This document shows, piece after piece, positions 6,358 through 35,664 of a stretch of DNA of 64,000 bases; within the stretch, counting starts at the first letter, position 1; each line of letters opens with the position of its first letter. The stretch covers positions 96,001 to 160,000 of the forward strand of contig OZ218778.1 of NCBI GenBank assembly GCA_965112635.1, in the 5' to 3' direction. The notes beneath the pieces are model-generated. The model worked only from the letters and a program-made list of their open reading frames with translations, was not told the DNA's origin and made no database searches. Origin of the DNA: an uncultured bacterium (GTDB lineage Bacteria; Oederibacteriota; Oederibacteriia; Oederibacteriales; Oederibacteriaceae). A program made the position numbers and the translations under genes.

Positions 6358-6618
6358 CTCGGAATCCCCTTTTAACCTTTTCCTTGCTACGGCTAGGCCT
6401 GCTCTTATTATTTCCTTTCTAAAACAATTATAAACCTGCTTTGCCTAGAATAATATCTTTGAGAAATCTGGCGGTAGTAATGCTGCCTGAAAAATCCACT
6501 CGAGGCCTTTACCTTATATATAAAGCCAATTCATTTCCAATTGCCATCAATCTGGCTGACAAATAGTATCAACCTCCAAATTCAAATAATCATGTATTAA
6601 TTACTAATAAATTTTAAC

Positions 6619-6791
6619 TCCCCCCTATCTTGTTTTCTTCAAATTACACCGTCTCGGTACCCGACCAACTCACCCTCAATCCTCACTAATCTATTTAATG
6701 TTATTGAGGGGGAGTTAGTTGGGGAGAACCAAGCGCAGCGAAGGTGTCAGAGACGGTGGAAATACAAGGAGAAAAACAACTATAGGGGGGA
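6619..6791. other. ~173-nt nested imperfect inverted repeat (long hairpin), function unknown
   Basis: Pairings 6619-6628/6782-6791, ttgtttt 6630-6636/aaaacaa 6773-6779, caccgtctc 6647-6655/gagacggtg 6750-6758, 6667-6680/6703-6716 (one mismatch). Confidence 0.6.
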
Positions 6792-6907
6792 TATATAGAA
6801 CTATAGGGCTGAAATGTTTCACCCCCTTGAATTTGTCAACTGGGAAGGCTCCTCTATTTCACCCAATTCAAAGGCAACGTGTTCACCCAAAAGGTTAATC
6901 CAGTCTA

Positions 6908-7148
6908 CTTCGACTCCTTTTTCCATTTCATTCATCCCATAACCCGCCGCTTTGCGGCGCTATACGGGATGGCTGGGGGAGTAGGAGTCCTGCTCCCTCG
7001 GTGCTTCGCACCTCATCCGCAGCCGGCCGCCCTCGCTTCATCTGCCACTGGCAGCGCTCGGGTCGGCTTCGACTCCTTTTTCCATTTCATTCATCCCATA
7101 ACCCGCCGCTTTGCGGCGCTATACGGGATGGCTGGGGGAGTAGGAGTC
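6908..7148 (-). repeat. 82-bp exact direct repeat (6908-6989 and 7067-7148) including the last 20 nt of tRNA-Gln
   Basis: 'cttcgactcctttttccatttcattcatcccataacccgccgctttgcggcgctatacgggatggctgggggagtaggagtc' occurs twice, 159 bp apart. Confidence 0.95.
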
Positions 7149-7203
7149 GAACCTACAATAGGCAGATTCAGAGTCTGCTGTCCTGCCATTAGACGATCCC
7201 CCA
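7129..7203 (-). tRNA. tRNA-Gln (anticodon CTG)
   Basis: TGGGGGATCGTCTAATGGCAGGACAGCAGACTCTGAATCTGCCTATTGTAGGTTCGACTCCTACTCCCCCAGCCA: 75 nt cloverleaf, GTTCGA T-loop, encoded CCA, U1-A72. Confidence 0.95.
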
Positions 7204-7283
7204 ACTGTACATGGCCATCGAGTGTTTATTTTAACTAAAATAAAAGCACAGAAATACTAACATCTGGAGGCAAATCCGACAAG

Positions 7284-8729
7284 TTACCGCTGCAGAACGC
7301 GCTGGATACGCTGGACGCACTTTTCTTTGCCCAGCAGTTCCATGATATCAAAAAGGCCGGGCCCGATGGTCCGCCCGGTCAGGCTGACCCTCAAAGGATG
7401 GATAAGCTGGGCCGGTTTTACTTTGAGTTCTTCGGCGTATTGCCTGACCATCTGTTCGGCCTCCTCCTTGTTGAAATTTCCCGCCCTGGCCAGGCGCGCC
7501 TGCAATTCTTTCAACTGCGTGAGGCTGACTTCGTTCTCCAGCCACTTTTTTTCCGCGCTCTCCTCGAACGCATAATCATCCCTGAAAAAATAATCCACGA
7601 ATTCCGGGAAGACCTGGAAGGTTTGAATCCTTTCCCTTTCCAGATCCAGAAGGCGTAAAAAAAGTTTTTTTTGCTCTTCCGTGATAGGGTCGGAGACCAA
7701 TTTCCGCTCTTGCATCATGGGCAGGATGGCCTGGTAAAGCCGCTCCTGCGGCATCTGCCGAATATAAACGCCATTCATCCAGTCCAGTTTTTTCTGGTCA
7801 AAGATGGCAGGGTTCTTGCCCACCCGTTCCAAAGTGAACTTCTCAATCAGCTCGGAAAGCGAAAAAAGCTGTTGGCTGTCCGAGGTGGACCACCCCAGCA
7901 AAGAGAGATAGTTGACCAGGACTTCCGGTAAATAGCCCAGCTCCCTGTATTCGGTCACCAGCGTGGCCCCGTGCCTTTTGCTAAGGCGTTTCTTGTCCGG
8001 GCCCAGGATCTGGGGCAGGTGGGCGTAGCGGGGCACGGGTTGGCCCAAAGCCTGGTGGAGGAGGATCTGGCGGGGGGTGTTGGAAAGATGGTCGTCTCCC
8101 CGGATGACATGAGTGATCTCCATGGCCCCGTCGTCCACGGCGCAGGCGAAATTAAAAGCCGGCCCGCCGTCCGATTTCATCAGCACAAAATCGTCGATCT
8201 CTTTATGGTCCACTTGGTTGAGGCCATGCACCATGTCCTCGAAACTGGTCATCCCGGGTTCAACTTTGAACCTCCACACGAACCTTTCGCCGTTGGCTAT
8301 CCGTTTTTCGGCTTCAGCGCTGGGAAGAGACCGACACTGGCCGTCATAACGCGGCGGGAGTTTTTTAGCGGCCATTTCCGCCCTTTTTGCGGCAAGTTCG
8401 TCAGGGGTGCAAAAGCAAGGATAGACCTGGTTGTTTTTTTGGAGTGTGGCCAAGGCCCGGCCGTAAATGTCCAAGCGCTGGGACTGGAAATAAGGGCTCT
8501 TGGGCCCGCCGATCTTCGGACCTTCCTGGTAGTCCATGCCCAGCCATTTCAGGCTGTCCAAAATAGCCTGGGTAAAACGTTCCTCGGACCTTTCCTTATC
8601 CGTATCCTCGATCCTGAGGATAAAAACCCCTTTTTCATGCTTGGCAAAAAGCCAGTTGAAAAGCGCAGTACGGACATTGCCTATATGGAGGAACCCGGTA
8701 GGTGATGGAGCGAAACGGACCCTGACCAT
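7284..8729 (-). CDS. gltX: Glutamate--tRNA ligase
   Basis: VRVRFAPSPTGFLHIGN (HIGH-type), RIEDTD, LSKR (KMSKS-type); start moved to ATG 8729. Confidence 0.97.
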   Translation of the reverse strand: MVRVRFAPSPTGFLHIGNVRTALFNWLFAKHEKGVFILRIEDTDKERSEERFTQAILDSLKWLGMDYQEGPKIGGPKSPYFQSQRLDIYGRALATLQKNNQVYPCFCTPDELAAKRAEMAAKKLPPRYDGQCRSLPSAEAEKRIANGERFVWRFKVEPGMTSFEDMVHGLNQVDHKEIDDFVLMKSDGGPAFNFACAVDDGAMEITHVIRGDDHLSNTPRQILLHQALGQPVPRYAHLPQILGPDKKRLSKRHGATLVTEYRELGYLPEVLVNYLSLLGWSTSDSQQLFSLSELIEKFTLERVGKNPAIFDQKKLDWMNGVYIRQMPQERLYQAILPMMQERKLVSDPITEEQKKLFLRLLDLERERIQTFQVFPEFVDYFFRDDYAFEESAEKKWLENEVSLTQLKELQARLARAGNFNKEEAEQMVRQYAEELKVKPAQLIHPLRVSLTGRTIGPGLFDIMELLGKEKCVQRIQRVLQR

Positions 8730-8734
8730 TGGAT

Positions 8735-10276
8735 TTACTCCCATTCTATCGTGGAGGGAGGTTTGGAACTGATGTCGTAGACCACTCGGTTGACGCCTTT
8801 GACTTCATTAATGATACGGTTGGATATTTTTCCAAGCAAAGGATAGGGTAAGTTGACCCAGTCCGCGGTCATGCCGTCCATGCTGTTCACGGCCCTCAAG
8901 GCGATGACATTATCGTAGGTCCTCTCGTCCCCCATGACTCCGACGGTCTTGACGGGCAGTAAAACGGCAAAGGACTGCCAGATCTTATGATAGAGCCCCG
9001 CGGCCTTGATCTCATCGATCACGACCCAGTCCGCCTCCCGCAGGATCTTTAATCGCTCTTCGGTCACTTCTCCCAGGACCCGGATGGCCAGTCCCGGACC
9101 GGGGAAAGGCTGACGGCCCACAATATCCTCGGACACCCCCATCTCCCTTCCTACCGCTCTGACCTCGTCCTTAAAAAGCTCCCTGAGCGGCTCCACCAAT
9201 TTAAATTTCATCTTCTCGGGAAGTCCGCCCACATTATGGTGGGATTTGATGGTCGCCGAAGGTCCTTTGACCGAAACACTTTCAATGACATCCGGGTAAA
9301 GGGTCCCTTGGGCAAGATAAGGGATTTTTCCCAGTTTTTTTGCCTCTTTTTCAAAGACACTGATGAACTCCGCGCCTATGATCTTCCTCTTTTTCTCCGG
9401 ATCCAGCACGCCTTTTAACTTTCCTAAAAATGACCTGGTGGCATCAGCGTACACCAGCCGCATCTTGAAATGTCCCGCAAAGACCTTTTGGACCCTTTCA
9501 GCCTCGTCCTTTCTCAGGACGCCATTGTTGACGAACACGCAGGTCAGCTGTCTGCCTACCGCTTTATGCAAGAGAACCGCCGTGACCGAAGAGTCTACCC
9601 CTCCGCTCAGGGCGCACAAGACCCTTTCCTTGCCGATTTTTTCCCTGACCTGCTTGATGGTCTCCTTCACGAACGATTTCATGTTCCAGGTGCCTTGGCA
9701 TCCGCAGACCCTGTAAAGAAAATTGCGCAGAATTTCCTTACCTTGTGGAGTATGGACCACTTCGGGATGGAACTGCAATCCAAAGATCCTTTTTTGTTTA
9801 TCCTGCATGGCGCTGAAGGCGGAATTATGGGTAGAGGCGACCGGTTCAAAACCCTGGGGAAGCTTGACGACTTTATCCCCGTGGCTCATCCAAACCGTGA
9901 TCTTCTTGGGCAATCCCTTAAAAAGGTCAGAGGATGAGGAATGGCTCAACCAAGCGTGGCCGTATTCCCTTTTGGTGGATGAATCCACCCGGCCGCCCAG
10001 CAGGTAACCCATAAGTTGCATCCCATAGCAGATCCCCAAAACAGGGATCCCCAATGAAAAAATACCCTTATCCGGGATGGGCGCCTGTTTTTGATAAACG
10101 CTGGACGGTCCGCCTGAAAGAATAATCCCCTGCGGCTGGAGTTCTCTGAGACGGCTTGCCGAGGTGTTAAAGGGAAGTATTTCGCAATAAACTTTCAGTT
10201 CCCGGACCCGGCGGGCGATGAGCTGGGTGTACTGGGACCCGAAATCCAGCACATAAACAACTTCGCGCTTCGTCAT
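8735..10276 (-). CDS. guaA: GMP synthase (glutamine-hydrolysing)
   Basis: [47 protein letters not shown]. Confidence 0.98.
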
Positions 10277-10305
10277 AACATCCTTTTAATGGCAGAATCC
10301 ATGGG

Positions 10306-11466
10306 CTACTTCCCCATGCCCACCTTTTGAGACCGCTGGAATACTTTGCCTTCGGTCTTGATGGACGGAGCGATAATAATCTCGGTCATCTGCATTTCGC
10401 GAATATTCTTTACCCCCAGGACGCCCATGGACGTCTGGAGGGCTCCGACCAGGTTTTGGGAACCGTCATCCAGGTTCGCGGGACCGAGCAAGATCTCCTC
10501 CAACGAACCCGTGGTCCCCACCTTGATCCTCGTCCCCCTGGGCAGGTTGGCGTGCGGGGTAGCCATACCCCAGTGGTAACCGCATCCCGGCGCCTCTTTG
10601 GCGCGGGCAAAAGCCGAACCGACCATGACGGCGTCCGCCCCGCAGGCAATGGCCTTGCAGATGTCGCCTCCCACGGACATACCGCCGTCCGTGATGATGG
10701 GCACGTACCTGGCCGTCTGCTTGAAATAAAAGTCCCTGGCCGCCGCGCAATCGACCGTCGCGGTGACCTGCGGAACCCCTACTCCCAGCACGCCGCGGGA
10801 AGTACAAGCCGCGCCCGGCCCCACGCCGACAAGAACTCCGGCGACACCGGTCTCCATCAGTTCCAGCGTGGCGTTAAAGGTCACGGTATTTCCTGCCACC
10901 ACGGGGATCTTCATCTTTTTGCAGAATTTTTTGAAATCCAGAACCTTATACTTGGTTGAAATATGGCGGACCGTGGCCACGGTCGATTGGACAAAGAAAA
11001 TATCCGCTCCGGCCTTTTGGGCGATCTCACCGTATAGCTCGGACTTCTGCGGAATGGATGAAACAGCAGCCAATACTCCGCCCTTCTTTATCTCTTTGAT
11101 CCGCTTCACGATCAGTTCTTCCTTGACCGGCGGCAAATAAAGCTCCTGCACCAGCTTAGTCGCTTCCTCTGGCGAAGCGTCCGCGATCTGCTGAAGGACG
11201 GTTTCCGGCTCCTTATAGCGTGTTTGAACGCCTTCTAAGTTAAGAACCGCCATTCCACCCAGCCTGCCCATGGCAACCGCAAAGCTAGGGTCCACAACCC
11301 CGTCCATGGCCGAAGCCAGAATCGGGGTCTCTAATTTCAGCCCGCCCAGCTCAAAGGATATATCCACCTCTTCAGGATTGTAGGTGATATCCCCTGGTAC
11401 CAAGGCGATATCGTCAAAACCATATGTTTGCCTGGCTTTGCGGCCACGGCCGATCCAAAAACCCAT
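10306..11466 (-). CDS. guaB3: GuaB3-type IMP dehydrogenase (no CBS domains)
   Basis: GRGRKARQTYGFDDIALVP, SAMDGVV, catalytic GVGPGAACTSR; directly upstream of guaA. Confidence 0.88.
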   Translation of the reverse strand: MGFWIGRGRKARQTYGFDDIALVPGDITYNPEEVDISFELGGLKLETPILASAMDGVVDPSFAVAMGRLGGMAVLNLEGVQTRYKEPETVLQQIADASPEEATKLVQELYLPPVKEELIVKRIKEIKKGGVLAAVSSIPQKSELYGEIAQKAGADIFFVQSTVATVRHISTKYKVLDFKKFCKKMKIPVVAGNTVTFNATLELMETGVAGVLVGVGPGAACTSRGVLGVGVPQVTATVDCAAARDFYFKQTARYVPIITDGGMSVGGDICKAIACGADAVMVGSAFARAKEAPGCGYHWGMATPHANLPRGTRIKVGTTGSLEEILLGPANLDDGSQNLVGALQTSMGVLGVKNIREMQMTEIIIAPSIKTEGKVFQRSQKVGMGK

Positions 11467-11477
11467 CCTCAACCTCC

Positions 11478-11813
11478 CTATTTGTATGAGATTTTTTTAA
11501 ACTTTTCGAATAACAATAACCCCAAGAACACCACCATCGTTGCGACCAGTAAAATACCAGTTCCTACCAAAGAACCCTTGAGCCTGTCAAGAACCACTCG
11601 GGCGTTGGGGTCACCGGCGGATATACGATTAAGGGTATTATTGAAGCATAATAATAACAAACTAATAACAAAAAAGAAAACAACAGACAAGATAGCAAAT
11701 ATCTTGGCCACTCTGCTGAACCAGTTGTGCTCCCTGTATCTTTTTTCCAGCTGGACCTGCTTTTCAAACTCCGCGATCACCTGCTGGACCTTTTTCCCCT
11801 TATCCAACTCCAT
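11478..11813 (-). CDS. Small hypothetical membrane protein (2 TM)
   Basis: Two hydrophobic stretches; AAGGAG upstream of ATG 11813; co-oriented with neighbours. Confidence 0.6.
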   Translation of the reverse strand: MELDKGKKVQQVIAEFEKQVQLEKRYREHNWFSRVAKIFAILSVVFFFVISLLLLCFNNTLNRISAGDPNARVVLDRLKGSLVGTGILLVATMVVFLGLLLFEKFKKISYK

Positions 11814-11862
11814 CTGGTCACCCGCTCCTTCCGCCACCAAAAACACCCCCTTTCCTTGTTGC

Positions 11863-13401
11863 CTATCCTTTCTTCCAAATATTCCTGTCTAGGCTACGGT
11901 ACTGTATGGCCTCCAAAAGATGCGGCGCCAGGATATTATCCTGGCCATCAAGGTCCGCGATGGTCCTGGCCAGCTTAAGTATCCTGTCGTAGGCCCTGGC
12001 TGACAAACTCAACTGCTCCACCGCAGCGCGGAATATTTCCCTGGAAGCGTCGTCTAGAATGCAGAACTTTTTCAGGTGCCGATGTTGCATATGGGCGTTG
12101 TAGAGCAGGCCGCTTCCTTTGAGCCTCTGCTTTTGCCGCTCCCGGGCTCGCTGCACTCTTTCCCTGATGTTAGCAGAACTTTCACCGTCGGACAAACTCG
12201 ACATCTCTTTATATTTCAAACTAGGCACTTCTAAATGAATATCAATGCGGTCAAGCAAAGGTCCGGAAATGCGGGATACATACTTTTGGATCTGCAGGGG
12301 GGTACAACGGCAATCTTTCCTAAGGTCCCCATAATAACCGCAGGGGCAGGGGTTCATGGCCGCCGTAAGCATAAATCTTGCGGGATAAGAAATGGATGCC
12401 GCCGCGCGGGAAATGGTAACCCTCCCTTCCTCCAAAGGCTGCCGCAACACTTCCAGGACGTTCTTTTTGAACTCAGGCAGTTCATCCAGGAACAATACCC
12501 CATGGTGGGCCAAACTGACTTCCCCGGGTCTGGGGATGGCTCCGCCTCCGATCAAACCCGCGTCGGAGATCGTGTGATGCGGCGACCGGAAAGGTTTTTC
12601 TGTGACCAGAGCCGCATGGGAAGGCAAAAGACCAGCGACAGAATAAATCTTGGTGCACTCCACCGCCTCTTCCAGGGTGATGGAGGGCAGGATGGTGGGC
12701 AACCTTTTGGCCAGCATTGTCTTTCCAGACCCTGGGGGACCAATCATTAGGAGATTATGTCCGCCGGCCGCGGCCACTTCCAAAGCGCGCTTGGCGTGCT
12801 CTTGGCCCTTGATCTCCGAGAAATCGACCTTATGGCTTTGAACTTCCTGAAAAGCATCCTGGAGATCGAACGTATAGGGCTGGATCTTTTTCTCCCCATT
12901 GAGGATTTGGATGGCATCCAATAAATGGCCGACCGGGATGATTTCAAGTCCAGGGACCACGGCAGCCTCTTTGGCGTTCTCCGCGGGAACAATGACACCT
13001 TTCTTCTTGTTGTGCTTGGCTGCCAAGGCCATCGGCAAGATTCCCCGGACCGGCCTGACGCTGCCGTCCAGAGAGAGCTCACCAAGCACCAGATAAGCAT
13101 CCAGCTTATCAGAGGATAATTGTTGGGTGGAGGCTAGGATGCCTAAGGCCATGGGCAGGTCGAAAGCCGGACCTTCTTTCTTGATATCAGCTGGAGCCAA
13201 ATTGACCGTGATGTGTTTTAAGGGAAAAATAAATTGGGAATTTTGGATGGCGGACTTTACCCGCTCCTTACTTTCTTTGACAGCGGCATCCGGCAAGCCC
13301 ACGGTATTGAACTGCGGGAAGCCTGTTGCCGTATCAACCTCCACAGTCACCAGATACGCATCAACCCCCAGGACAGCGCTGCTGTGAACCATGGCTAGCA
13401 T
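11863..13401 (-). CDS. comM: YifB/ComM Mg-chelatase-like AAA+ ATPase
   Basis: [68 protein letters not shown]. Confidence 0.93.
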
Positions 13402-13511
13402 ACGGCCCCTATTCCCTTTCTAACCTTATAAATAAAAGTAAAATCACACGACAGGAACACGGCCTGTGGCGTAGCGGCTAAAAGGTGTGGAATATCTTTC
13501 CAAAACGCCTT

Positions 13512-13973
13512 TCATTCAACCCAAAAACCAATGGCTTCGGTATTTTTATTGGCTTCCCTTAGGCGTTGGCTCAGGATTTTGACCAGGATCTCCATGAGCT
13601 TGACCGAAGTCCCCTGAAACTTTTCTTTGAAATCCTCAAAATTTTTCTGGGTAATGACGAGCACTTTGGTGTCCATAGCGGCCTTGGTCCCGGCTGAGCG
13701 CGGCGCGCCGTCCAAGATCGCCATCTCTCCGAAAAAATCCCCTTTATTGAGGACCGCCACAGTGTTCTCCGTATTCTTGACCTTTTTGATCACTTTGACC
13801 GAACCCGAACGGATGATATACATCTTGTCCCCGGGAGTTTCCTCAGCAAAAATGACCTCGTCCTTTTTGAACACTGCCTCTGTGCAAACAGAAGCCAGGT
13901 TTTCCAGGTCCTGGGGTTCAAAATTCTTGAAAGCAGGGTATTCGGCCAAAAAATCAGTTACCGGCATATTCAC
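13512..13973 (-). CDS. Stand-alone cyclic nucleotide-binding domain protein
   Basis: GDKMYIIRSGSVKV and GDFFGEMAILDGAPRSA phosphate-binding cassette; no HTH. Confidence 0.9.
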   Translation of the reverse strand: MNMPVTDFLAEYPAFKNFEPQDLENLASVCTEAVFKKDEVIFAEETPGDKMYIIRSGSVKVIKKVKNTENTVAVLNKGDFFGEMAILDGAPRSAGTKAAMDTKVLVITQKNFEDFKEKFQGTSVKLMEILVKILSQRLREANKNTEAIGFWVE

Positions 13974-14000
13974 GCCTCGCTTTCACGCTGGTATTTTGCT

Positions 14001-15029
14001 CTACTTCTTAGCAACAGCACTTTGATCAGTCATTTTCTGCGCTAAAATGACTAGCTTCCGCTTTGCGTCCTCAACTAAATAACCGCCTTGGTTAATCTTA
14101 ATGAATTTCGTATATTCAGTAATAGCCTTTTCGAAATTTTCCCTATGTTCGTAAACTTGGGCGAGAAAATAATAGGCCGAAACATAGGTCGGGTCGATTT
14201 GAACGGCTTGGCGGTAAAAATCTATGGCTTCTTCGGGTTGGCCGATCTCATCCAAGAATAACCCGATCGTATTGAATGCTTTGGCGCTCTTCGGGTTCAA
14301 CTCCGCGACTTTTTTGAACATCTCCAAAGCTTCCTGTTGCATCCCCTTGGTCTTATACGCACTGGCCAGGTTGGAGTATGCCGCGCTATATTTAGGATCG
14401 ATATCGAGAGCCTGCTTGTATCCCTGAATGGCCCTGTCCAGCATCCCCTTTTCCGCGTAAAGATTGGCCAGGTCTAGGTTAGCTTTGGCCTTATTGACAT
14501 TCTGCTTAAGCGACTCCTCCATGAGCTTAATGGCCTCATCGATCATCCCTTGGTTATAATGGTCCAGTCCAAGATGGTGGTAACTATCCGCATAACTGGC
14601 ATCCAGTTCAATGGCCCTGTTGAATTCTTTCATCGCCTCATGGTACATGCCTTTGTCAAAATAAACATTACCGAGGTTGTTATGGAGGAGGGCGGAATTG
14701 GGGTTCTTAAACAACGCGCTATTGTAACTCCACACTGCGGCATTGAACTGTCCCTGCCAGGCCAGGATCAAACCAAGATTGTTCCAAGCTTCCACGCTGT
14801 CAGGGTTTAACTCCGTGACCTTTTTGAACGACTTATAAGCCTCATCGAGATTGCCCTGGTCAATATAGGCGAACCCTAGGTTGGTTAGCGCTTCCTGGTC
14901 ATTGGGGTCAACTTTCAAAGCTTGCTGGAACTCCAGGATGGCCTTTCCCAGTTCACCGTTGTTGGCGAGATCCTTGCCTTTTTGATTGGCTTCTTTCTTC
15001 TTTTCCTCGGGGGATTTAAAAAAACCCAT
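14001..15029 (-). CDS. Tetratricopeptide repeat protein
   Basis: ~9 consecutive 34-aa TPR motifs (e.g. AWNNLGLIL..GQFNAAV..Y..AL..NP). Confidence 0.9.
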   Translation of the reverse strand: MGFFKSPEEKKKEANQKGKDLANNGELGKAILEFQQALKVDPNDQEALTNLGFAYIDQGNLDEAYKSFKKVTELNPDSVEAWNNLGLILAWQGQFNAAVWSYNSALFKNPNSALLHNNLGNVYFDKGMYHEAMKEFNRAIELDASYADSYHHLGLDHYNQGMIDEAIKLMEESLKQNVNKAKANLDLANLYAEKGMLDRAIQGYKQALDIDPKYSAAYSNLASAYKTKGMQQEALEMFKKVAELNPKSAKAFNTIGLFLDEIGQPEEAIDFYRQAVQIDPTYVSAYYFLAQVYEHRENFEKAITEYTKFIKINQGGYLVEDAKRKLVILAQKMTDQSAVAKK

Positions 15030-15110
15030 TGATGCTCCCTTAAAAAAATAAGGTGTTTTTCTATGCTAACACATGCCCTTCAATTGTCAAGAAACCGGCT
15101 TTTTTAAACA

Positions 15111-15147
15111 AAAACCCGATTGCCGGTCTAGCCGGCAATCGGGTTTA
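15111..15147 (-). terminator. Intrinsic terminator after the Spy/CpxP-like gene
   Basis: aaacccgattgccgg-tctag-ccggcaatcgggttt hairpin followed by a U-run on the minus strand. Confidence 0.8.
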
Positions 15148-15177
15148 TCAATATCAAAACCATATAAAATTTACTTT

Positions 15178-15681
15178 CTACTTGTCTCCGCCCTTGTCAT
15201 TACCGCTGTCCTCTTTTTCTTGATCTTCTCCGCCTTTTTTCTTATCTTTCCATTCTTTCATCTTTTCCATCCCTTTTTTAGCCATTCCCAGGACCATCTG
15301 CGCCTGCTGGGTGGGGGTTAATATCTGTTTCATGCCATCAGCGCGCTGTTTATCCAAAACCTGCTCTTGGGTTCTATTGCTGGCCAGTTTATCCAACACT
15401 CCGCTGATATCGCTATCACTGCCTTTGCTATCAACCAACCCTTTTAATTGTTTTAAAAGGTCCTTATCACTATCTCTCAGGGGCTTCATTTTACCCTGTA
15501 TATCTTTTTGTAAATCCTGCATCTTGGTTTGCTGGTCTGTGGTTAATCCTAATTTCTCCGCCCACTTACCCTTTCCGTCTTTTCCTTCCTTCCCACCACC
15601 CTTGTCATCCGCCATAACAAAACTAGCTGACAACGCTAGGGCTAAAACTAATCCCCCAATAACTAACCCCTTAATCTTCAT
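15178..15681 (-). CDS. Spy/CpxP family periplasmic chaperone
   Basis: Signal peptide; LGLTTDQQ and ILTPTQQ (LTXXQ motifs); start at MKIKG with GGAGG RBS. Confidence 0.8.
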   Translation of the reverse strand: MKIKGLVIGGLVLALALSASFVMADDKGGGKEGKDGKGKWAEKLGLTTDQQTKMQDLQKDIQGKMKPLRDSDKDLLKQLKGLVDSKGSDSDISGVLDKLASNRTQEQVLDKQRADGMKQILTPTQQAQMVLGMAKKGMEKMKEWKDKKKGGEDQEKEDSGNDKGGDK

Positions 15682-15816
15682 TCCTTCCTCCTTATAGTTT
15701 GAATTTGGCAGCCTTCCGGCGTCTATATACATTAAAACAATCAAACCAGTCAATAAATTTCACTAGCAGTGGCCTAATAACCTTCTGTTTACAAAAGTAA
15801 TGGACTAGCAGGAAAT

Positions 15817-16281
15817 TCATTCCCTTTCCTGGAGCGAAACCTTCATGGCCTTGCTGAGGTTCCGCTTTTCCTCCCTTTCCTTGATAGACCGCCTCTTGTC
15901 GAACAGCTTTTTACCCTTGGCCAGCGCGATCTCCACTTTGGCCCGGCCGTCCTTGAAATACAGCCGGGTAGGGATAAGGGTGCAGCCTTTGATCTGCGCC
16001 TTACCCATAAGCTTCATGATCTCATTCTTATGGAGGAGCAGTTTTCTGGTCCGGGTCGGCGGAAGGTTAAAACGATTGCCCTGTTCATAGGGAGGGATAT
16101 GGAGGTTCAACAGAAACAGCTCGCCGTTCCGTATCATGGCGTAGCTGTCCTTGAGGCTGACCTGCCCGGCCCGCAGGGATTTGACCTCAGTGCCCTTGAG
16201 CATCATCCCGGCTTCGTAAAACTCAATGAGGTCGTACAAGAACCGGGCCTGCCGGTTGAGAGAAACTATCTTCTCGCCCAC
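15817..16281 (-). CDS. smpB: SsrA-binding protein
   Basis: EAGMMLKGTEVKSLR, RTRKLLLHK, KGKKLFDKR. Confidence 0.97.
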   Translation of the reverse strand: MGEKIVSLNRQARFLYDLIEFYEAGMMLKGTEVKSLRAGQVSLKDSYAMIRNGELFLLNLHIPPYEQGNRFNLPPTRTRKLLLHKNEIMKLMGKAQIKGCTLIPTRLYFKDGRAKVEIALAKGKKLFDKRRSIKEREEKRNLSKAMKVSLQERE

Positions 16282-18476
16282 CCTTTGCCTTTCCTATTCT
16301 TCTTAAAGTGTTTCTCTTTTTTGAATTTTCCTTTTTTCTTGTCCGAACGAAAACCACCCTGAAGGACAAAATCCATCTGGCGTTTTTCTGCGTCCACCTT
16401 GGTCAGTTTGACCTCAACCGGGTCCGCCAACCTGAAAACTTTGCCGCTTCGTTTTCCTTTCAGGGTGTGGTCCTGCTCTGAATAGACGTAATAATCGTTG
16501 TCCAGGCTGCTCACATGGACCAGGCCTTCCACCAGCCACTCTTTGATCTCCACAAAAAAACCGTACGACTGCACTCCGGTGATGACCGCTTTAAAATCCT
16601 CACCCAGCTTGTCTTTCATAAATTCTATCTTCTTGAGTTTCAGGCATTCCATCTCAGCTTCCTGAGCGTTCCTTTCCCGCTGGCTGGACATCCCAGCCAC
16701 TTCGGCCAGGTGCTTTTCCAGGGAAACCTTCTGGTCAACTGAGAGCTCGCCCTCTTTTCTGTTCTTTTTTAACAGCCTGTGGACCATCAAGTCCGGGTAA
16801 CGCCGGATGGGAGAGGTAAAATGGGTGTAATGATCAAAAGCCAGTCCAAAATGCCCGGCGTTGACATTGGAATACACGGCCAGTTTCATTGACCGCAGGA
16901 GGAGCATATTGACCATGCCCTCCTCCAGCCTTCCTTTGACCGCGGCCAGGATGCTTTGCAGGTGCTTTTGGCTGGCCCCTTCCGTTTTGACGAGTTTTAA
17001 ACCAAGCACCTTCACATAGTCGGAAAAGGTCTTCAATTTGATGTCATCCGGCTTTTCATGGATGCGGTACAGGAAAGGGGAACCTTTTTTGGCCATATGC
17101 TTGGCCACGGTCTTATTGGCCGCCAGCATAAAGTCCTCGATGAGCCTGTGACTAAATAGCCGCTTGACCGCAATGATGGCGGCAGGCTTTCCGGCCTTGT
17201 CCAAAATGACCTTAGTTTCCGGCAGATCAAAATCCAAGGCGCCCTCATCTATCCTCTTTTTGTAAAGTATATGGGCCAGCGACTGCATCATTTTGAGTGA
17301 GGGTACCAGAGATTGATAACAGCTGGTCATAGCAGGGTCGCCATCCAGGATGGCCTGGACCTTTTCATAGGTCATTCTTTCTTTGACCCGGATGACACTG
17401 TCCGCCAGCTCATAAGAAACGACATTGCCCCGGTGGTCGATATCCATAATAGCGCTTTGGGTCAACCGGTCCTGTCCGGCCACCAAGCTGCACAAGTTAT
17501 TGGACAGGGCTTCCGGCAGCATGGGTACGACCTGGCCAGGCAGATAAACGCTGGTGCCCCGACTATAGGCTTCTGCGTCCAAAGGCCGGCCTTCCCGGAC
17601 ATAATGGCTCACATCAGCGATATGGACAAAAAGCCGGAAGTTCCCGTTGGAGAGCGACTCCACGGCGATCGCGTCGTCAAAATCCTTGGCGTCTTCGCCG
17701 TCAATAGTGATGACAACCTGTCCCGTAAAATCTCGGCGGCCCGTTTTTTCTCCGGGCTGGACGGACAAGGGTATACCCGCCACTTCTTTAATGACCGCTG
17801 GTGGAAATTCCGGGGTCAGATTGTATTCACGAAGGATGGACTGCAGGTCAACTCCGGGGTCATTTTTTTTGCCGAGAATCTCTATGACCTTTCCCACGGG
17901 ATTGCCATCATTGGATGGCCACTCAGTGACCTCTGCGACCACTTTATCAAGATGGCTGGCGTCATTAAAACCCTCTTTGGCAATAATAATATTGGAACCA
18001 AATTTATAGTTATCCGGGACCACCAGGCCGACCCCGCCTTTTAGCTCAAAGGTTCCGACCAAGGTTTTATGTCCGCGCTCTAATATCCTGATGACCGCGC
18101 CTTCCGGTTTACCGTGCCCTCCCCATTGGTGCTGTATTCTGACCACCACCCGGTCATCGGTGAACGCCCCGTTCCGATGGATGCGGCTCACAAAAATATG
18201 GGGTTTTTTCGGGTCATCTGGGACCAGAAAACAGTAACCGTCTTTATGCCCCTGCAGCACTCCGGGAACAAGATTCATTTCCTCGGATAGTCCGTATCTT
18301 TCTCCTTTTAAACTGACGATTTCCCCGGCCGCCTTAAGTTCCAGCAGCATATCCAATAAATACCCTCTTAATTTACCTTTCATTTCCAGTTCTAGGCTGA
18401 GTTCTTCCAAGGTCATGGGCCGGTAAGTATTCTGCTGCATATATTTCAAGAGAATGGCTTTGGTAACGCGCATCAT
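16266..18476 (-). CDS. rnr: Ribonuclease R
   Basis: TIDGEDAKDFDDAI, VHIADVS, YTHFTSPIRRYPDL, S1 domain, basic tail. Confidence 0.96.
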   Translation of the reverse strand: MMRVTKAILLKYMQQNTYRPMTLEELSLELEMKGKLRGYLLDMLLELKAAGEIVSLKGERYGLSEEMNLVPGVLQGHKDGYCFLVPDDPKKPHIFVSRIHRNGAFTDDRVVVRIQHQWGGHGKPEGAVIRILERGHKTLVGTFELKGGVGLVVPDNYKFGSNIIIAKEGFNDASHLDKVVAEVTEWPSNDGNPVGKVIEILGKKNDPGVDLQSILREYNLTPEFPPAVIKEVAGIPLSVQPGEKTGRRDFTGQVVITIDGEDAKDFDDAIAVESLSNGNFRLFVHIADVSHYVREGRPLDAEAYSRGTSVYLPGQVVPMLPEALSNNLCSLVAGQDRLTQSAIMDIDHRGNVVSYELADSVIRVKERMTYEKVQAILDGDPAMTSCYQSLVPSLKMMQSLAHILYKKRIDEGALDFDLPETKVILDKAGKPAAIIAVKRLFSHRLIEDFMLAANKTVAKHMAKKGSPFLYRIHEKPDDIKLKTFSDYVKVLGLKLVKTEGASQKHLQSILAAVKGRLEEGMVNMLLLRSMKLAVYSNVNAGHFGLAFDHYTHFTSPIRRYPDLMVHRLLKKNRKEGELSVDQKVSLEKHLAEVAGMSSQRERNAQEAEMECLKLKKIEFMKDKLGEDFKAVITGVQSYGFFVEIKEWLVEGLVHVSSLDNDYYVYSEQDHTLKGKRSGKVFRLADPVEVKLTKVDAEKRQMDFVLQGGFRSDKKKGKFKKEKHFKKNRKGKGWARR

Positions 18477-18543
18477 AATTATTTTTCCTTTTTACAAATT
18501 CATTCGATTATTGAACTTTGACTGTACCATACATCAAATCATC

Positions 18544-18572
18544 TTGACTTTTTTTCACATAATCCCTAGTTT
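18544..18572 (+). promoter_or_regulatory. Putative sigma70 promoter of tRNA-Leu
   Basis: TTGACT-N17-TAGTTT ending 9 nt before the tRNA. Confidence 0.55.
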
Positions 18573-18581
18573 ACTATTTGT

Positions 18582-18667
18582 GCGGAAGTGGCGGAATGGC
18601 AGACGCGCTAGATTCAGGGTCTAGTGGGGGCAACCTTGTGGGGGTTCAACTCCCCCCTTCCGCACCA
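18582..18667 (+). tRNA. tRNA-Leu (anticodon CAG)
   Basis: GCGGAAGTGGCGGAATGGCAGACGCGCTAGATTCAGGGTCTAGTGGGGGCAACCTTGTGGGGGTTCAACTCCCCCCTTCCGCACCA: 86 nt, long variable arm, encoded CCA. Confidence 0.95.
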
Positions 18668-18996
18668 ATTCTTAAAGTTTCACCAACATACCCTTGTCAT
18701 TAGCGGGAAATAATAACCAAACGCCATAGCGTTTGGTTGGGGAGTTGAACGGGCGGAGCCTCGCAAAGCGAGGCGAGCCCCGCCTGGAGGCGAGAGCCGT
18801 TAGGCTCGAGACCGTAAGGTCAACTCCCCCCTTCCGCACCACAAAAGCCTCTGGCCATATTTCAATAATGCGTTTCCTCTCAGAGGCTTTTGCATCGGAA
18901 CAGCTTTCCGATGAAGACATTAAACCCACCAACAAACCCTTGTCATTAGCAGAACATTATGATCAAACGCGTTAGAGTTTGGTTTAGGAGTTTAAC
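18646..18996 (+). repeat. tRNA-Leu-linked repeat: 22-nt 3' end duplicated (18646-18667 / 18820-18841) plus ~70-nt degenerate flank repeat (18681-18750 / 18927-18996)
   Basis: tcaactccccccttccgcacca twice; caccaaca(t/a)acccttgtcattagc twice; aaacgc..gtttggtt..ggagtt(g/t)aac twice. Confidence 0.92.
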
Positions 18997-19016
18997 AACC
19001 TGACCCACATGATTTT

Positions 19017-22000
19017 TTAAAATCTCGCCAATCCCCCAATGGTCAACTGGAAGGCCCAATAATTACGGCCGACTGTAGTTTGATCCTGATAAATAAATTC
19101 CTGGAATTGCACTGAACCTTCGATGTTCTTGATCAAGTTGTATTGCAGAGTAGAAGAGTGCGTCCAAAGTTGTGATTTATCGTCGCTGTTAACGCCCCCG
19201 AATGAGGTATTTTCCTGCATATTGATATCCAAATGGTGGGTAAACCTGAATACCCCTGTGGGCTTAAATTTAAAGAACGCCAGGTCCATAAGACCTACAA
19301 AGGTGACATTGTGATTGAGGTCCACCGAAGGGTCTAGGCTCGTCGTGGTCGTTCCGGATTGATTGGCTATGGAGTTGGCCTGTGACATAGACCAGGTGCA
19401 ATTCGTGGAAAAATAAAAATCTTCCAGAGGCCGCCAGGGCAAAGATTCCGAAAAGGTTTGTGTAGTGGCGGTGTTGAGGAGATTATTCGAGTTATCCCTT
19501 TGTTCTGAATACTTGTAATTGTAATTTAAGCTCAACAGGTTCGGCTTTAAGATCTCCTGCCAGATTGGGAAAGGCACCTTGGAAAGCTGTGCTCCACTGC
19601 CGGCATTATAGACCAGATTATTATTAGCAAATTGGTTATTGATATCCGTGGATTGCCTTCTGGAAAGGTTAGGAGTAAAAGTCCAAACGTCGTAAAGGGG
19701 AAAATGGCTGCTGGCACTGTCTTCCGTGGCATAAGAACCATTCGTGACCAACTGCTGCAAAGGTGCAGTGAAGGGAGACCATAGGTCATTGAAAGCGGTC
19801 ACATTATCTCCAAAAAGGGCGTTGTTCAAGGTGTCTCCCCCGAGGCTGGTATTGGGCGCGCTGAGACTATAAAAAGTCTGGGTCACTGTTAATTTATGCT
19901 CGGCGGTGACTGTCCAAGGTAACTGGGGCAAGCTCATCCAGACCCCCGGCTGCATAGGGTCCACAAAATCTAAGCTGACGTTAGTATTTAAATTGTCCAG
20001 GGTGAAATCCCGGTTGTTGGAACCTGAATAATTGATCTGCGGGTCCATCCCTGGGATGAACTTAAATTCCGTATTCAGGGTCGCCCCGAGGTTGCGTTGC
20101 TGGGCCGCGAAATCAGGCCACACCAGTTCCTGAGTACTGGACTGTCCTGAAAGCCCGACGACATTATAAGTCAAGGCACCTCGGGCATCCTTGCCATAAA
20201 AACTATAGGAGGGAGACACCAACACCCCGGCCCATGGTTCATAACCTCCCCTCCAGGCGTAGGTCTGCTCAAGGATATCTGTGATGGAATCTTGATAAGT
20301 GGTAAAGAAAGGATTGTTGGGATCATAAGTATTCTTGTTTTCGGTGTATTTCACCGCCCCATTAAAAGAATTGCCCTTCCCCAAAGGTATTCCAAAGAGG
20401 CTTTGGGGAGCCGTGTAATCAATACGGGGCGCTAAACTCCATACCGTGGCGTCATTATTGATGCCAAAGTTCTGCTGCAAGTAAATTGTTTGCCTGTCCT
20501 GATAGCTGGAATCCAGATTGAAATTGAGCGGGTTGAAAAGGGTAAAACCTATCCCGCTGGTAACAAGCTGGGAATCTGTTTGAGGCAACCCCAGGAAATT
20601 CGGATTGGACTTGTATTGGTCTTCGGTAAGAACCTCGTCGTGGGAATAGTTCACGTTCACGGGCAAAAAACTGAACTGCTGGTAATTCGCATTGGTGGAA
20701 AAATCCCTCGTATGCTGCTTATTGATACCCTGCTGGGTCAGGGAAGCCTGGTCTATGAGCATAAAATCGGAGTCCACTTCCCGGTAGGTGCTGGAGGTGT
20801 TCAAAATATCGCTGTATTTGGTATTGACGGTCATCCTCCTGGCCAATCCATGCCTGACCACCACGTCGGTCACCCGAAGATTATCTATCCAGACAGTTCC
20901 AGAAGTGGGCCAGGAATTGGTGGTCATGACGCCTATGGAAACCTCCCTGATGCCGTTCAAGTAGGGAGGGCCGTTATCCCCGGCAGGCTGCACAGCGCCA
21001 CCCCGGACTTTGATCCTGTTCCCATCCGAACCATCCAAAACAACGACCATGGTCTGCCAGCTTCGAGCCATATTTGATGACAGAGGAAAGTTATATTGCA
21101 AATAGTCCGTATCGCTCGCACCCAAGCGGATAAATAAAGTTGCGGAGTTGTCGGTGACAAAATAGGGTAAAATATCCATCCGCACATCGCGGTAGGCCGA
21201 ATAGTCCTGCCCAAGATTATAATATTTCGTGGCCACAAAAAAGTTCTGGTTATTGGGTTGGGTTCCCGCCGCGGTTAGATTATAGTTGACCTTCAGGGAT
21301 TGCTCATGGATGGCGCTTGACTGGGTCGTGTCAAAAAAATTGGTGTTGGGTTGGTAACTAGGATCGAGCTGCTGGTTGATCGCGCCCACATTGAATTGGG
21401 TAGAGTCCACCACGGTCTGCATTTGGGCATTGCTGTAATTGACCAGTTGCCACTTATTTCCCGTGAATGCGATAGATTCAAAAGTGGCCTGGCACTTCGC
21501 ACCGGAGGAGTTGCCGAACCACATTCGGAAATGTTTGATAATGGTCTTGTCAGGGGTCCCGACGATACTGAACTGAGGATTGGTGGCGCCTTGAGCGTTA
21601 GGGATATATCCTGGCCCGCCGCTGAAATTCAAAGGGATCTTGATGTAATGCCATCCGCTGGGGAAGTCCAGGGGAAAGGAATATTCGTAATAAGCGTCAA
21701 TTTTATCCAGTATCCCATTGTTGTTCATGTCCCATGTGTTGAGATGGTCGTCTCCGACCCCCGCCAGAATTGTTCCTCCCAAATAATTTATAGGTAGGCC
21801 GTTATCTTCTCCTGGATTGAGGATGGTATCTTTGTTCTGATCCTCTGTCATTTCAGGCCAGGTTATAAGGGCCCCGGCCGAGCCATCGCCATTGACGTCC
21901 TCGCTGATGACACCCACATCAAGGTTGAGGGTCGTTCCCTGATTACCGCAGTTATTGACCCACATTTCAACGTATTGGTAGTTAGTAAAATCCTGGCCTG

Positions 22001-34274: not shown

Positions 34275-34415
34275 CATACTTCCGGTGTCCTGGCTTGGCT
34301 TCGTCCTTCCCTGTGCCTTCCCAGCCTTTTGGCCAGTGGTTTTCACAGGGTCGTCAGCATTTACAGTGGCGGGGCCGTCGCCGAATTTCACGGCGTTCCC
34401 GGAACTTTTCAATTT
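34275..34415 (-). promoter_or_regulatory. Cobalamin riboswitch upstream of btuB
   Basis: Minus strand GGGAACGCCGTGAAATTCGGCGACGGCCCCGCCACTGTAA..CCACTGG..GGGAAGG..AAGCCAGGACACC (B12-box). Ends approximate. Confidence 0.88.
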
Positions 34416-35426: not shown

Positions 35427-35484
35427 GGTCTTTGAGTGTCTATGGAACCGACTCCCTCACCTCGAGGAGCGCTTTTCTTTAAAT

Positions 35485-35635
35485 TTAGTTCGGGCCAGGT
35501 CTCCTGGCTTATGCCTCATCCTCGCCTGCACCTTCCCAGCCGGTGGGCCAGTGGTCTTACGCAGGTTCGTCAGCATTTACAGTGGCGGGGCCGTCGCTGG
35601 TTTTCACAGCGTTCCCTCTGCCCGAATATGTTTAA
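35485..35635 (-). promoter_or_regulatory. Cobalamin riboswitch upstream of btuF
   Basis: Minus strand AGGGAACGCTGTGAAAACCAGCGACGGCCCCGCCACTGTAA..CCACTGG..GGGAAGG..TAAGCCAGGAGACCTG. Ends approximate. Confidence 0.92.
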
Positions 35636-35664
35636 TTCAAAGAACATAAAACAATATCACTGCC

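Follow-up and report, generated by a model that had tools for sequence, protein, structure and literature searches.

In the 64,000-nt stretch of DNA analysed here (the window), the genes for tRNA-Gln(CTG) and tRNA-Leu(CAG) are each followed by inverted and direct copies of their own 3′ parts, arranged around a GC-rich core, which raises the question of what these structures are and how two unrelated tRNA genes came to carry them. We consider, with a probability of about 70%, that both loci are tRNA-linked repeats of the RtT kind, that is, gene-less inserts of about 150–220 nt lying directly behind a tRNA gene and on the same strand. Each proposed unit would begin with a hairpin-bearing spacer, followed by an inverted copy of the 3′ part of the tRNA, which covers the T-loop and 3′ T-stem and in some cases reaches into the acceptor strand; a conserved, structured core would come next, and last a tail copy of 15–22 nt that begins in the T-loop.

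At the Leu locus, where all features lie on the forward (+) strand, tRNA-Leu(CAG) (18582–18667; ARAGORN and Rfam tRNA) is the host gene of a unit that we call type A. It is followed by a spacer (18668–18714) containing the word GCGGGAA (18703–18709), which resembles the 5′ acceptor strand of tRNA-Leu, GCGGAAG, and is complementary to the acceptor 3′ strand in the tail copy; overall, such acceptor-like spacer words track their host only weakly, with at least six of seven positions matching in 16 of 29 cognate comparisons versus 136 of 782 non-cognate ones. Next comes the spacer ('F') hairpin (18715–18738; 10 bp, 4-nt loop), recognized as an inverted repeat and by covariation, whose position is conserved in type A units, with compensatory changes in 8 of 8 modelled pairs. 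The 12-nt inverted T-arm GGGGAGTTGAAC (18739–18750), the exact complement of GTTCAACTCCCC in tRNA-Leu, forms the 5′ strand of a closing helix, P1. The type A core (18751–18819; 69 nt, 138 bits with the type A model) is a three-way junction, in which P2 (GGGC..GCCC) carries a variable hairpin and P3 (GCCU..AGGC) carries a 3×3 internal loop and a hairpin. An exact 22-nt direct copy of the tRNA-Leu tail (18820–18841) then completes P1 with its 3′ strand and goes on into the acceptor 3′ strand and CCA. Behind it, the hairpin CAAAAGCCUCUG...CAGAGGCUUUUG (18842–18892; 12-bp stem, 27-nt loop) is a possible terminator for a joint transcript of tRNA-Leu and its unit; it was not among the calls of the terminator scan. 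Finally, positions 18927–18996 hold a second spacer, hairpin and inverted arm, which are the remnant of an older unit.

The Gln locus lies on the reverse (−) strand and carries a unit of type B behind tRNA-Gln(CTG) (7129–7203; ARAGORN, Rfam tRNA 61.4 bits). Fold prediction and comparison place in the first spacer copy (7078–7128) a hairpin, GCGCCGC-AAA-GCGGCG enclosed by UCCCGUA/UAUGGGA in the predicted fold, and a box, ATGAATGA, which is shared with the type B unit behind tRNA-Ser and with viral and gut copies of type B. The first inverted T-arm, AGGAGTCGAAG (7067–7077), was found by inverted-repeat search, and 10 nt of it (7068–7077) are the exact complement of the T-loop and 3′ T-stem of the tRNA. 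The GC-rich type B core (6990–7066; 77 nt) lies between the two repeat copies; its 5′ module, CCGAGCGCUGCCAGUGGCAGAUGAAGCGAGG, is a hairpin with tandem GA/GA internal loops on either side, and its 3′ part was found in this genome alone. Next, the final 20 nt of the tRNA, from inside the T-loop to CCA, are repeated in direct orientation (6970–6989), and the second spacer copy (6919–6969) begins a second, truncated unit, which stops at the second inverted T-arm (6908–6918) with no core after it. The whole arrangement rests on an 87-nt direct repeat (6903–6989 and 7062–7148; 98% identity, spacing 159) that spans the final 20 nt of the tRNA and the hairpin spacer of 51 nt and includes the word AGGAGTCGAA, which is exactly complementary to TTCGACTCCT in tRNA-Gln. 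A helix between inverted arm and tail copy is possible in the Gln unit but is absent from the predicted minimum-energy fold.

An earlier sequence-only reading of this DNA had proposed that the two tRNAs share one layout, that the inverted arm tracks the host tRNA and that the inner elements share little sequence; the exact inverted words at both loci and the assignment of the cores to two unrelated families, type A behind Leu(CAG) and type B behind Gln(CTG), bear this out. Its second inverted T-arm is exact at Gln; at Leu, it must be called degenerate, since the second spacer and arm are only 81% identical to the first (18681–18750).

The layout at both loci is confirmed as real and far beyond chance. 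Scanning every tRNA gene for an inverted T-arm and a tail copy, we found the layout behind 6 of the 48 predicted tRNA genes of this genome. In these six alone, the 600 nt downstream contain an exact inverted word of at least 10 nt whose match is the T-loop/T-stem, at an offset of −21 to −24 from the 3′ end; five of them also have a direct copy of 15–22 nt located 136–172 nt downstream. A 10-nt inverted word behind tRNA-Pro(ggg) was discarded, as it maps to the acceptor strand (offset −11) and both it and the accompanying direct copy derive from the adjoining tRNA-Pro gene; the remaining inverted matches downstream of tRNAs are 9-mers at other offsets, 459–494 nt away. Conversely, a pattern search placed all four type A and both type B cores behind tRNAs, and a seventh unit, the fifth type A copy, lies within a decayed tRNA-Ser duplicate, at its T-loop. 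As all copies in this genome (five of five type A and two of two type B) adjoin a tRNA gene or pseudogene, dispersed intergenic repeats of the REP/BIME or MITE type were rejected. An assembly artefact is also countered by pieces identical to 6908–6989, 6960–7081, 7119–7205 and 18823–19005 in contigs of other runs, which possibly come from non-independent samples.

The folds of these units are conserved to a degree that their sequences are not. For the predicted RNA folds, z-scores range from −5 to −7, and in the type A alignment 90.7% of cells are paired, compared with 73.2% in shuffles and 24–46% in slid controls. Both sides vary in 26 of 37 type A pairs, a number reached by none of 500 shuffles. 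The covariation asked for by the earlier reading is, therefore, shown to be strong for type A. G-U/U-G combinations outnumber A-C/C-A ones (43 versus 11), indicating that the folding strand is the tRNA-sense strand. At Leu and in other type A units, the core is closed on this strand by pairing between the inverted copy and the direct one. The whole unit looks like the acceptor/T-arm half of its tRNA, except that the core takes the place of the T-loop.

A conserved RNA-like fold behind a tRNA could mean that the unit is an RNA device that acts in cis from the tRNA 3′ trailer to tune the maturation or stability of particular tRNAs. Its inverted arm would pair either with the T-arm of its own tRNA, so that the precursor is trapped, or with the tail copy downstream, which would free it. 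The units are always on the same strand and directly 3′ of the tRNA, and the conservation of their GA internal loops is suggestive of an RNA that folds. Besides, no terminator separates tRNA and unit in this genome, and the tail copy has hairpins or T-runs behind it. In the predicted minimum-energy folds of tRNA-Leu plus unit, the inverted arm and GCGGGAA pair with the T-arm and acceptor strand of the same tRNA, with or without the tail copy; the energy models ignore tRNA tertiary structure, modification and co-transcriptional folding. Such a device would have to account for a unit present behind only 6 of 48 tRNAs, for orthologous tRNA genes of related Elusimicrobiaceae that work without one, for units that decay, are truncated or sit behind terminators, and for the same cores serving 16 tRNAs and, in the case of type B, lying mostly outside tRNA contexts. 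This patchy, dispensable distribution argues against a required role in maturation, and we regard the device as unlikely, even though, according to a preprint (10.1101/2024.07.17.603846), rtT RNA takes part in processing the tyrT transcript.

The distribution of the cores points to mobility. Neither the type A nor the type B core had a match in the 98 other genomes of the phylum that were searched, among which there is no close relative of this genome. Elsewhere, type A occurs mostly in Elusimicrobiaceae, with 2–10 copies per carrier genome and behind tRNAs of 16 anticodon species, which, together with the six tRNAs here, upholds a recurrent system rather than a coincidence. Among 44 distinct type A loci, 33 have a same-strand tRNA upstream within the flank examined, 21 have an exact inverted word of at least 9 nt and 25 have an exact direct word of at least 9 nt. 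The type B module was found at no fewer than 120 metagenome loci (gut) and in three viral contigs, mostly in non-tRNA contexts (a tRNA lies upstream in only 6 of 80 loci examined). Matches of this kind show, at the sequence level, that both core families are common to distant phyla. The GA-rich internal loops are conserved, as is sequence across phyla, and both hint that the units have a specific partner or function, which a purely selfish reading leaves unexplained.

Direct evidence of insertion comes from Elusimicrobiaceae, which belong to another phylum than the genome studied here. We inspected 21 tRNA-Val(CAC) loci, of which 10 are filled, 6 are empty, 3 are truncated and 2 carry other repeats; orthologous loci with tandem units were also seen. 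When the filled locus L237 is compared with the empty locus L250, the flank of the empty site is found behind the tail copy and the tRNA is intact, while the insert is bounded by a 20–21-nt direct repeat beginning in the T-loop. Given that orthologous loci are empty, filled, tandem or truncated, the units are insertions, and the view that they behave as inserted DNA is supported. In Elusimicrobiaceae, an intrinsic terminator stands between the tRNA and the unit, an order that is easier to reconcile with inserted DNA than with an RNA transcribed together with the tRNA.

Direct copies of a tRNA 3′ end that start in the T-loop are the classic footprint of integrase insertion, a general rule reportedly formulated by Williams in 2002, and the loci could accordingly be ordinary scars (attL/attR remnants) of prophages or islands that integrated and excised, with incidental hairpins. 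What lies between the repeats, however, is a conserved, covarying structure found behind many tRNAs in several phyla; it is only 150–220 nt long, holds no gene remnants and includes an inverted arm, which a scar does not need. We therefore consider such scars highly unlikely.

The loci could also be a different kind of recombination site, folded as single-stranded DNA in the manner of attC, which was one of two possibilities offered by the sequence-only reading, or of CTX attP, and served in trans by a tRNA-anchored system: the closing stem would reproduce the T-loop-to-3′-end duplex in one strand, and a recombinase acting there would insert the unit. A conserved fold with largely variable sequence and a bias to one strand, the identity of the stem with the target duplex, the insertion polymorphism with its direct repeat, the tandem arrays, and the absence of reverse transcriptase (RVT_1) from genome G000 and three of four other carrier genomes all agree with this. 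A contig in run X1 that joins 7066 back to 6908 might be added, but the joint falls within an 82-nt repeat and can equally be an extra tandem copy or a cycle in the assembly graph. Against it, the variable cargo and the recombinase that were sought did not appear: no gene was seen between or inside units at any inspected locus, here or in Elusimicrobiaceae, and neither the Gln nor the Leu locus has a recombinase gene nearby. The neighbours are genes for a class I Glu/Gln-type aminoacyl-tRNA synthetase, GMP synthase, RNase R, SmpB and repeat proteins, and the units contain no Pfam-annotated gene in a scan that left out ORF 6879–7238 (119 aa), which overlaps the Gln unit and its tRNA. The T-loop words, GTTCRAN, also do not fit the consensus of the attC R′ site, GTTRRRY. 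Moreover, insertion with the tail of one tRNA would damage a different tRNA, so that the spread to 16 species would be left unexplained. An attC-like cassette system is not supported, and we rate folded sites acting in trans as improbable.

Our preferred reading, tRNA-linked repeats of the RtT kind, would work as follows. The units would be non-autonomous selfish inserts that use the T-loop-to-3′-end segment of a tRNA as their attachment or homology site, so that the tRNA stays intact and the old tail is pushed downstream. They could use the repeated tail to multiply in place and could also spread by horizontal transfer, as the absence of the cores from the 98 other genomes of the phylum and the presence of type B in metagenomes and viral contigs suggest. 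In some lineages, the spacer hairpin is a terminator. In this genome, which has no terminator between tRNA and unit, the two are probably co-transcribed, and trimming at the regenerated tail would then yield a stable small RNA, by analogy with what is reported for RttR of Escherichia coli. No step would require a protein encoded by the element.

Among known systems, att sites with a T-loop sublocation and CIMEs are the concepts that describe tRNA-targeting integrative elements and their integrase-less derivatives. The units share with these elements an insert flanked by a tRNA 3′-end direct repeat beginning in the T-loop, an intact tRNA, the displacement of the resident tail and flank downstream, and tandem accretion. 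As in a CIME, 3′-end direct repeats with the resident flank behind the distal repeat are present in Elusimicrobiaceae, and the repeats are present in the window; an integrase gene or island-gene remnants within or beside the insert were found at neither locus. The units differ in being 150–220 nt long, in lacking integrase and cargo, in carrying an inverted copy of the target and in having one core that serves many tRNAs.

Integron attC sites have inverted core sites (RYYYAAC / GTTRRRY), with gene cassettes between sites. They are likewise defined by structure, fold from one strand and conserve pairing more than sequence. However, the units have no cassette ORFs and, near the two loci here, no integron integrase context, and their stems copy the adjoining tRNA instead of family-wide core sites; the arms are T-loop words (GTTCAAC, TTCGACT; GTTCRAN) with C at the fourth position, and do not match the attC core-site consensus.

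The closest relatives in architecture are the RtT repeats of E. coli, long known and unexplained. The earlier reading took the layout to be undescribed and tyrT-type repeats to lack an inverted T-arm closing a fold; in tyrT/tyrV, however, GGGGAAGGAT pairs with AATCCTTCCCC of the next tRNA-tail copy, and this helix is the outer stem of the Rfam RtT consensus structure (RF00391). K-12 has 16 RtT copies, behind Tyr, Pro, Lys/Val, Ser and Arg, and those behind tRNA-Pro and tRNA-Ser have arms matching these tRNAs. Like the units described here, RtT lies directly behind the tRNA on the same strand, in several tRNA species with arms following each host, occurs in tandem and ends in a copy of the last ~19 nt of the tRNA; in both, inverted T-arm and tail copy form the outer helix of a GC-rich multi-hairpin core, continued by the acceptor strand and CCA. 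The core sequence and inner fold have no detectable relation to RtT: the RF00391 model (gathering score 45 bits; 133–137 bits on the E. coli positive control) failed to match any of the six loci of this genome, even with E allowed up to 5, or any of 13 type A loci of other genomes with E up to 0.01, and the type A model scored at most 11 bits on the tRNA-sense strand of six RtT-bearing loci. The units also have an extra spacer hairpin and occur in other phyla. For RtT, an RNA product is documented, RttR, which is encoded by one tyrT repeat unit (PMC3318445). On architecture alone, the units would add new core families to a kind of element that is already known, if poorly understood; the cores are new and the layout is not. 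More tentatively still, RtT, type A and type B may be separate branches of a single class of insertion modules that spans phyla, is defined by structure and encodes no protein. Such modules would home to the T-loop-to-3′-end segment of tRNA genes, rebuilding both arms from the target at each insertion. As a side effect, the inverted arm of such a module might trap the tRNA precursor whenever the tail copy is missing, which would make piecemeal loss hard. Integration of this kind would be target-templated and self-reprogramming, carried out in trans by some enzyme or by replication template switching at the hairpins of the tRNA itself.

In the whole window, ARAGORN predicts two tRNA genes, tRNA-Gln(CTG) at 7129-7203 on the minus strand and tRNA-Leu(CAG) at 18582-18667 on the plus strand. 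The sequence-only reading had described a shared layout behind both of them, built on the T-arm of each tRNA, and this observation is confirmed by exact inverted words and exact tail copies at the two loci. Behind tRNA-Gln, reading along the minus strand, a hairpin spacer of 51 nt is followed by AGGAGTCGAA(G), the exact complement of the T-loop and 3' T-stem of the tRNA, then by a GC-rich core of 77 nt, an exact copy of the last 20 nt of tRNA-Gln, and the spacer and inverted word again; the resulting repeat is 87 nt long, 98% identical and has a spacing of 159 nt. Behind tRNA-Leu, the spacer has a 10-bp hairpin at its end and leads into the exact inverted word GGGGAGTTGAAC (12 nt), a core of 69 nt, the last 22 nt of the tRNA as an exact copy, a 12-bp hairpin and a degenerate second spacer and inverted arm, 81% identical to the first. 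Spacer, inverted word, core and tail copy are referred to here as a unit. The neighbours of the two loci encode a class I Glu/Gln-type aminoacyl-tRNA synthetase, GMP synthase, RNase R, SmpB and large repeat proteins. With neither a recombinase or transposase nor a cargo gene found near either locus, the earlier suggestion of an attC-like cassette system is left unsupported.

Other features were recorded in the same window. About 100 nt beyond the Gln units, at 6768-6809, two adjacent 21-nt words are 76% alike and each contains CTATAGGG. Immediately downstream of the Leu unit lies an ORF of 1846 aa (19017-24557, minus strand) without any Pfam family at E<=1e-5. At 34283-34401 and 35477-35663, both on the minus strand and ~1.1 kb apart, are two cobalamin riboswitch aptamers (Rfam RF00174, 82.5 and 100 bits).

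Contigs from four peat runs were compared with positions 6300-19400 of the window, at low depth, and none of them spanned a whole unit. For positions 6908-7066, one low-depth contig of a single run (X1) links 7066 back to 6908, a step back of 159 nt. This joint falls within an 82-nt repeat, with 82 letters that fit either side. It may reflect a circle, a cycle in the assembly graph or one more tandem unit, and is therefore given no weight here.

The genome carrying the window (G000) is a single contig (C1) of 2.88 Mb with 48 predicted tRNAs. A scan of all of them, as proposed in the sequence-only reading, showed that the layout recurs at six: Gln(CTG), Leu(CAG), Leu(TAG), Leu(GAG), Arg(TCG) and Ser(TGA) have an exact inverted T-loop/T-stem word of 10-12 nt located 44-73 nt downstream. 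Five of the six also have a direct tail copy of 15-22 nt, 136-172 nt downstream, the Ser copy being 11 nt long. The layout in this genome is, then, a system and not two coincidences. Two unrelated core families are present. Type A, hosted by the three Leu genes and Arg, has the consensus GAA-GGGCGGAGC-(variable hairpin)-GCGAGCCC(C/A)GCC-UGGAGGC-(hairpin)-GACCGNAAGG, and type B is hosted by Gln and Ser, with CCGAGCGCUGCCNGUGGCAGAUGAAGCGAGG and more common to both copies. Pattern searches detected neither core elsewhere in G000, and no unit was found behind its tmRNA gene. Using R1, a covariance model of type A, we detected a fifth type A copy. It is embedded in a decayed duplicate of tRNA-Ser(TGA) (G000:C1:1439313-1439565, plus strand, outside the window; L025:1377-1629) that lies 48 nt upstream of the intact gene. 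The duplicate retains the 5' acceptor strand, the D-arm, the variable arm and the 5' T-stem, with a larger hairpin in place of the anticodon arm and the core in place of the T-loop.

The nearest genomes available for comparison with G000 belong to the same phylum only. Among 98 other genomes of this phylum, neither type A, searched with R1, nor type B, searched with a 24-nt word allowing <=2 mismatches, was found; an exact-pattern search gave only chance-like matches in 40 relatives, and the type A pattern had 0 matches in viral contigs. In a collection with one genome per species, the exact type A pattern was detected in 46 stretches, all of which are matched by R1. The carriers are mostly Elusimicrobiaceae gut MAGs, and further labels include Bdellovibrionales, Bacteriovoracia, Saccharibacteria, Alpha- and Betaproteobacteria and Actinomycetota, a few of which may result from mis-binning. 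A same-strand tRNA gene lies upstream (flank <=600 nt) at 33 of the 44 distinct type A loci, with 4 more cut by the locus edge, and the host tRNAs cover 16 anticodon species. Exact inverted words of >=9 nt were found at 21 type A loci, exact direct words of >=9 nt at 25, and both at 15, while the number of copies per carrier genome ranges from 2 to 10. For type B, a 29-nt word (28 specified bases) was detected at at least 120 metagenome loci, many labelled human gut metagenome. A shorter 16-nt word gave 21 matches in viral contigs, three of which extend into real type B similarity; Rfam returned no match at E<=1 on these three loci. A tRNA gene (Trp or Met) is located upstream at only 6 of the 80 type B loci inspected. 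At the tRNA-linked loci, the core lies between tRNA-derived pieces and the tail copy, and another core type can occur in the same array; away from tRNAs, the flanks of the type B module supply a variable stem that closes it. In these searches, both cores are common to distant bacteria and not to relatives.

Direct evidence that these units are insertions was obtained in Elusimicrobiaceae, that is, in another phylum than that of G000. The tRNA-Val(CAC) locus of one type A carrier (L038) served as query against 81 Elusimicrobiaceae genomes, and 21 loci were inspected. The tRNA gene is nearly identical across them and the sequence behind it differs: at least one unit is present at 10 loci (one of them with 2-3 tandem units of diverged core), a truncated remnant at 3, other repeats at 2, and the terminator and next gene only at 6. 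In a filled locus (L237), a different terminator stands directly behind the tRNA, followed by the unit, and the resident terminator and downstream gene come after the tail copy; comparison with an empty locus (L250) therefore sets the inserted DNA at ~215 nt. The insert, bounded by a direct repeat of 20-21 nt, contains a terminator of its own and an acceptor-like word, together with spacer hairpin, inverted arm, core and tail copy; equivalently, it is the same circle opened in the T-loop. In other filled loci, both terminators are identical, and therefore the duplication can reach beyond the terminator, or the copies have been homogenised. Units are gained, lost, amplified in tandem and decayed, and their cores are shared horizontally.

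Two further arrangements were observed around tRNA genes. The Elusimicrobiaceae loci L028, L034, L039, L042, L252 and L258 carry a different repeat, ~110-130 nt long and bounded by the inverted ends TTTTTCTTC...GAAAAAA; it has been inserted within type A units as well as behind the same tRNA genes, in some cases as arrays. In L044 (Bacteriovoracia) and L064 (a MAG), a long near-perfect palindrome has the tRNA 3' end plus 36-39 nt of flank as its left arm, and its right arm continues directly into the inverted tRNA-tail copy of the unit.

Folded as RNA, type A units have z-scores of -5 to -7, and their common structure consists of the spacer hairpin, a closing helix (P1) formed by the inverted arm and the tail copy, and a three-way junction whose two arms carry GA-rich internal loops. 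Covariation was assessed on the 46 matches from other genomes (45 distinct rows); in this alignment, which was fitted to R1 and is biased towards its structure, standard pairs make up 90.7% of the cells (73.2% in shuffles), both partners change in 26 of 37 pairs, the observed pairing values were reached by 0 of 500 shuffles, and sliding the partners by 1-3 columns lowers pairing to 24-46%. The type A fold is conserved. In most sequences, the bases of column pair 63/161 do not truly pair; with this pair excluded, G-U/U-G cells outnumber A-C/C-A cells by 43 to 11, which indicates that the tRNA-sense strand is the one that folds, as RNA or single-stranded DNA. Similarity (>=6 of 7 positions) between the 5' acceptor strand of the tRNA and the word 5' of the spacer hairpin was seen in 16 of 29 cognate vs 136 of 782 non-cognate comparisons, an imperfect tracking among loci that are related to one another. 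The possibility that a class II tRNA variable arm gave rise to CCGNAAGG, the 3' end of the type A core, was considered and dropped, because these bases have other partners in the covarying structure.

The Gln type B unit can form the closing helix, but the minimum-energy prediction is a different fold; the z-scores of this unit are -3.2 as RNA and -2.6 as DNA. The 5' module shared by type B copies is a hairpin between tandem GA/GA loops (26 aligned copies). In L077, L078, L083 and most of L093-L172, this module is part of a ~105-nt motif composed of a variable closing stem, a GA-loop hairpin and GCGGUCAAAAUUUC-hairpin-GAAAUUUUGGGCACCGCAACAG, which is seen again in metagenome contigs (many with a human gut label) and in three viral contigs, mostly away from tRNA genes.

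The elements described here are tRNA-anchored, gene-less, structured inserts whose arms are copied from the host tRNA. We propose that the stretch from the T-loop to the 3' end of the tRNA gene would serve as their attachment or homology site, that the unit would persist because the tRNA stays whole, and that amplification would proceed via the repeated tail. In G000, the unit would be read through from the tRNA promoter, given that there is no terminator between tRNA and unit and that hairpins or T-runs lie behind the tail copy. In predicted folds of a transcript comprising tRNA-Leu and its unit, which ignore tRNA tertiary structure, the inverted arm pairs with the T-arm of the tRNA itself, and a trap-and-release effect on the tRNA precursor is possible.

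Alternative origins were also considered. A retro-copy of the mature tRNA was rejected, since the Arg(TCG) gene has no encoded CCA and its tail copy likewise lacks it, so that tail copies derive from DNA and not from mature tRNA; in addition, G000 and 3 of 4 other carriers lack the RVT_1 reverse transcriptase domain. A hairpin that has no core and only one inverted loop is what tandem-inversion-duplication and quasi-palindrome template switching would produce. Neither is supported as the source of the inverted arm, as such a product was not seen except in L038. There, at ~500-560 on the minus strand, a core-less copy behind a full unit has an acceptor-like word and the spacer hairpin, then the inverted arm, a loop of 6-7 nt and a T-loop/T-stem copy.

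Besides the cobalamin aptamers, Rfam returned only tRNAs and chance-level matches, both on the window at gathering score and on six G000 loci at E<=5, and we found neither a description of type A or B elements nor an explanation of the origin or function of the E. coli tRNA-linked repeats (RtT, Rfam RF00391) in the full texts searched. The two core families, without Rfam entry, therefore seem to be new, as does their spread across phyla; the direct evidence, from another phylum, of such units as insertions is also new. The same architecture with unrelated cores is found in a peat bacterium, Elusimicrobiaceae, predatory bacteria and gut communities. For annotation, such units mean false 'att scars' and partial tRNA matches, and for assembly, short-read contigs that break at tRNA genes.

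The architecture itself, which the sequence-only reading had taken to be undescribed, is that of the RtT repeats. In the tyrT-tyrV region of strain K-12, each repeat starts with the last 19 nt of tRNA-Tyr; ~46 nt further on lies GGGGAAGGAT, the complement of the T-loop/T-stem word, then a GC-rich core of ~95 nt and the next tail copy. The outer helix of RF00391 is exactly the inverted word plus the tail copy. The 16 RtT matches in K-12 are located behind tRNA-Tyr, Pro, Lys/Val clusters, Ser and Arg, and the inverted word tracks the host (GAGGAT for Pro, GGGGGGAT for Ser). Papers by Egan and Landy in 1978, Rossi in 1981 and Rudd in 1999 reportedly deal with tyrT and may bear on prior description. 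According to one article (PMC3318445, citing Bosl and Kersten 1991), one tyrT repeat unit codes for the sRNA RttR, and a preprint reports that under stress the 'mobilome' coverage of the tyrT region is raised, and states that the mode of action is not known (10.1101/2024.07.17.603846).

Although sequences of these E. coli repeats were recorded decades ago, neither an origin nor a function has found acceptance. Our units have the same layout, and the arms of both follow the host tRNA, whereas the cores differ: RF00391 has no match on the units described here, and R1 gave no meaningful match on six E. coli loci bearing RtT, so the cores represent different families within one architecture. With the recurrence of this architecture, and with units that come and go behind one and the same orthologous tRNA, what had been a peculiarity of E. 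coli becomes a general class open to testing, for which RtT in E. coli K-12 offers a tractable model of how a gene-less element copies both strands of its target.
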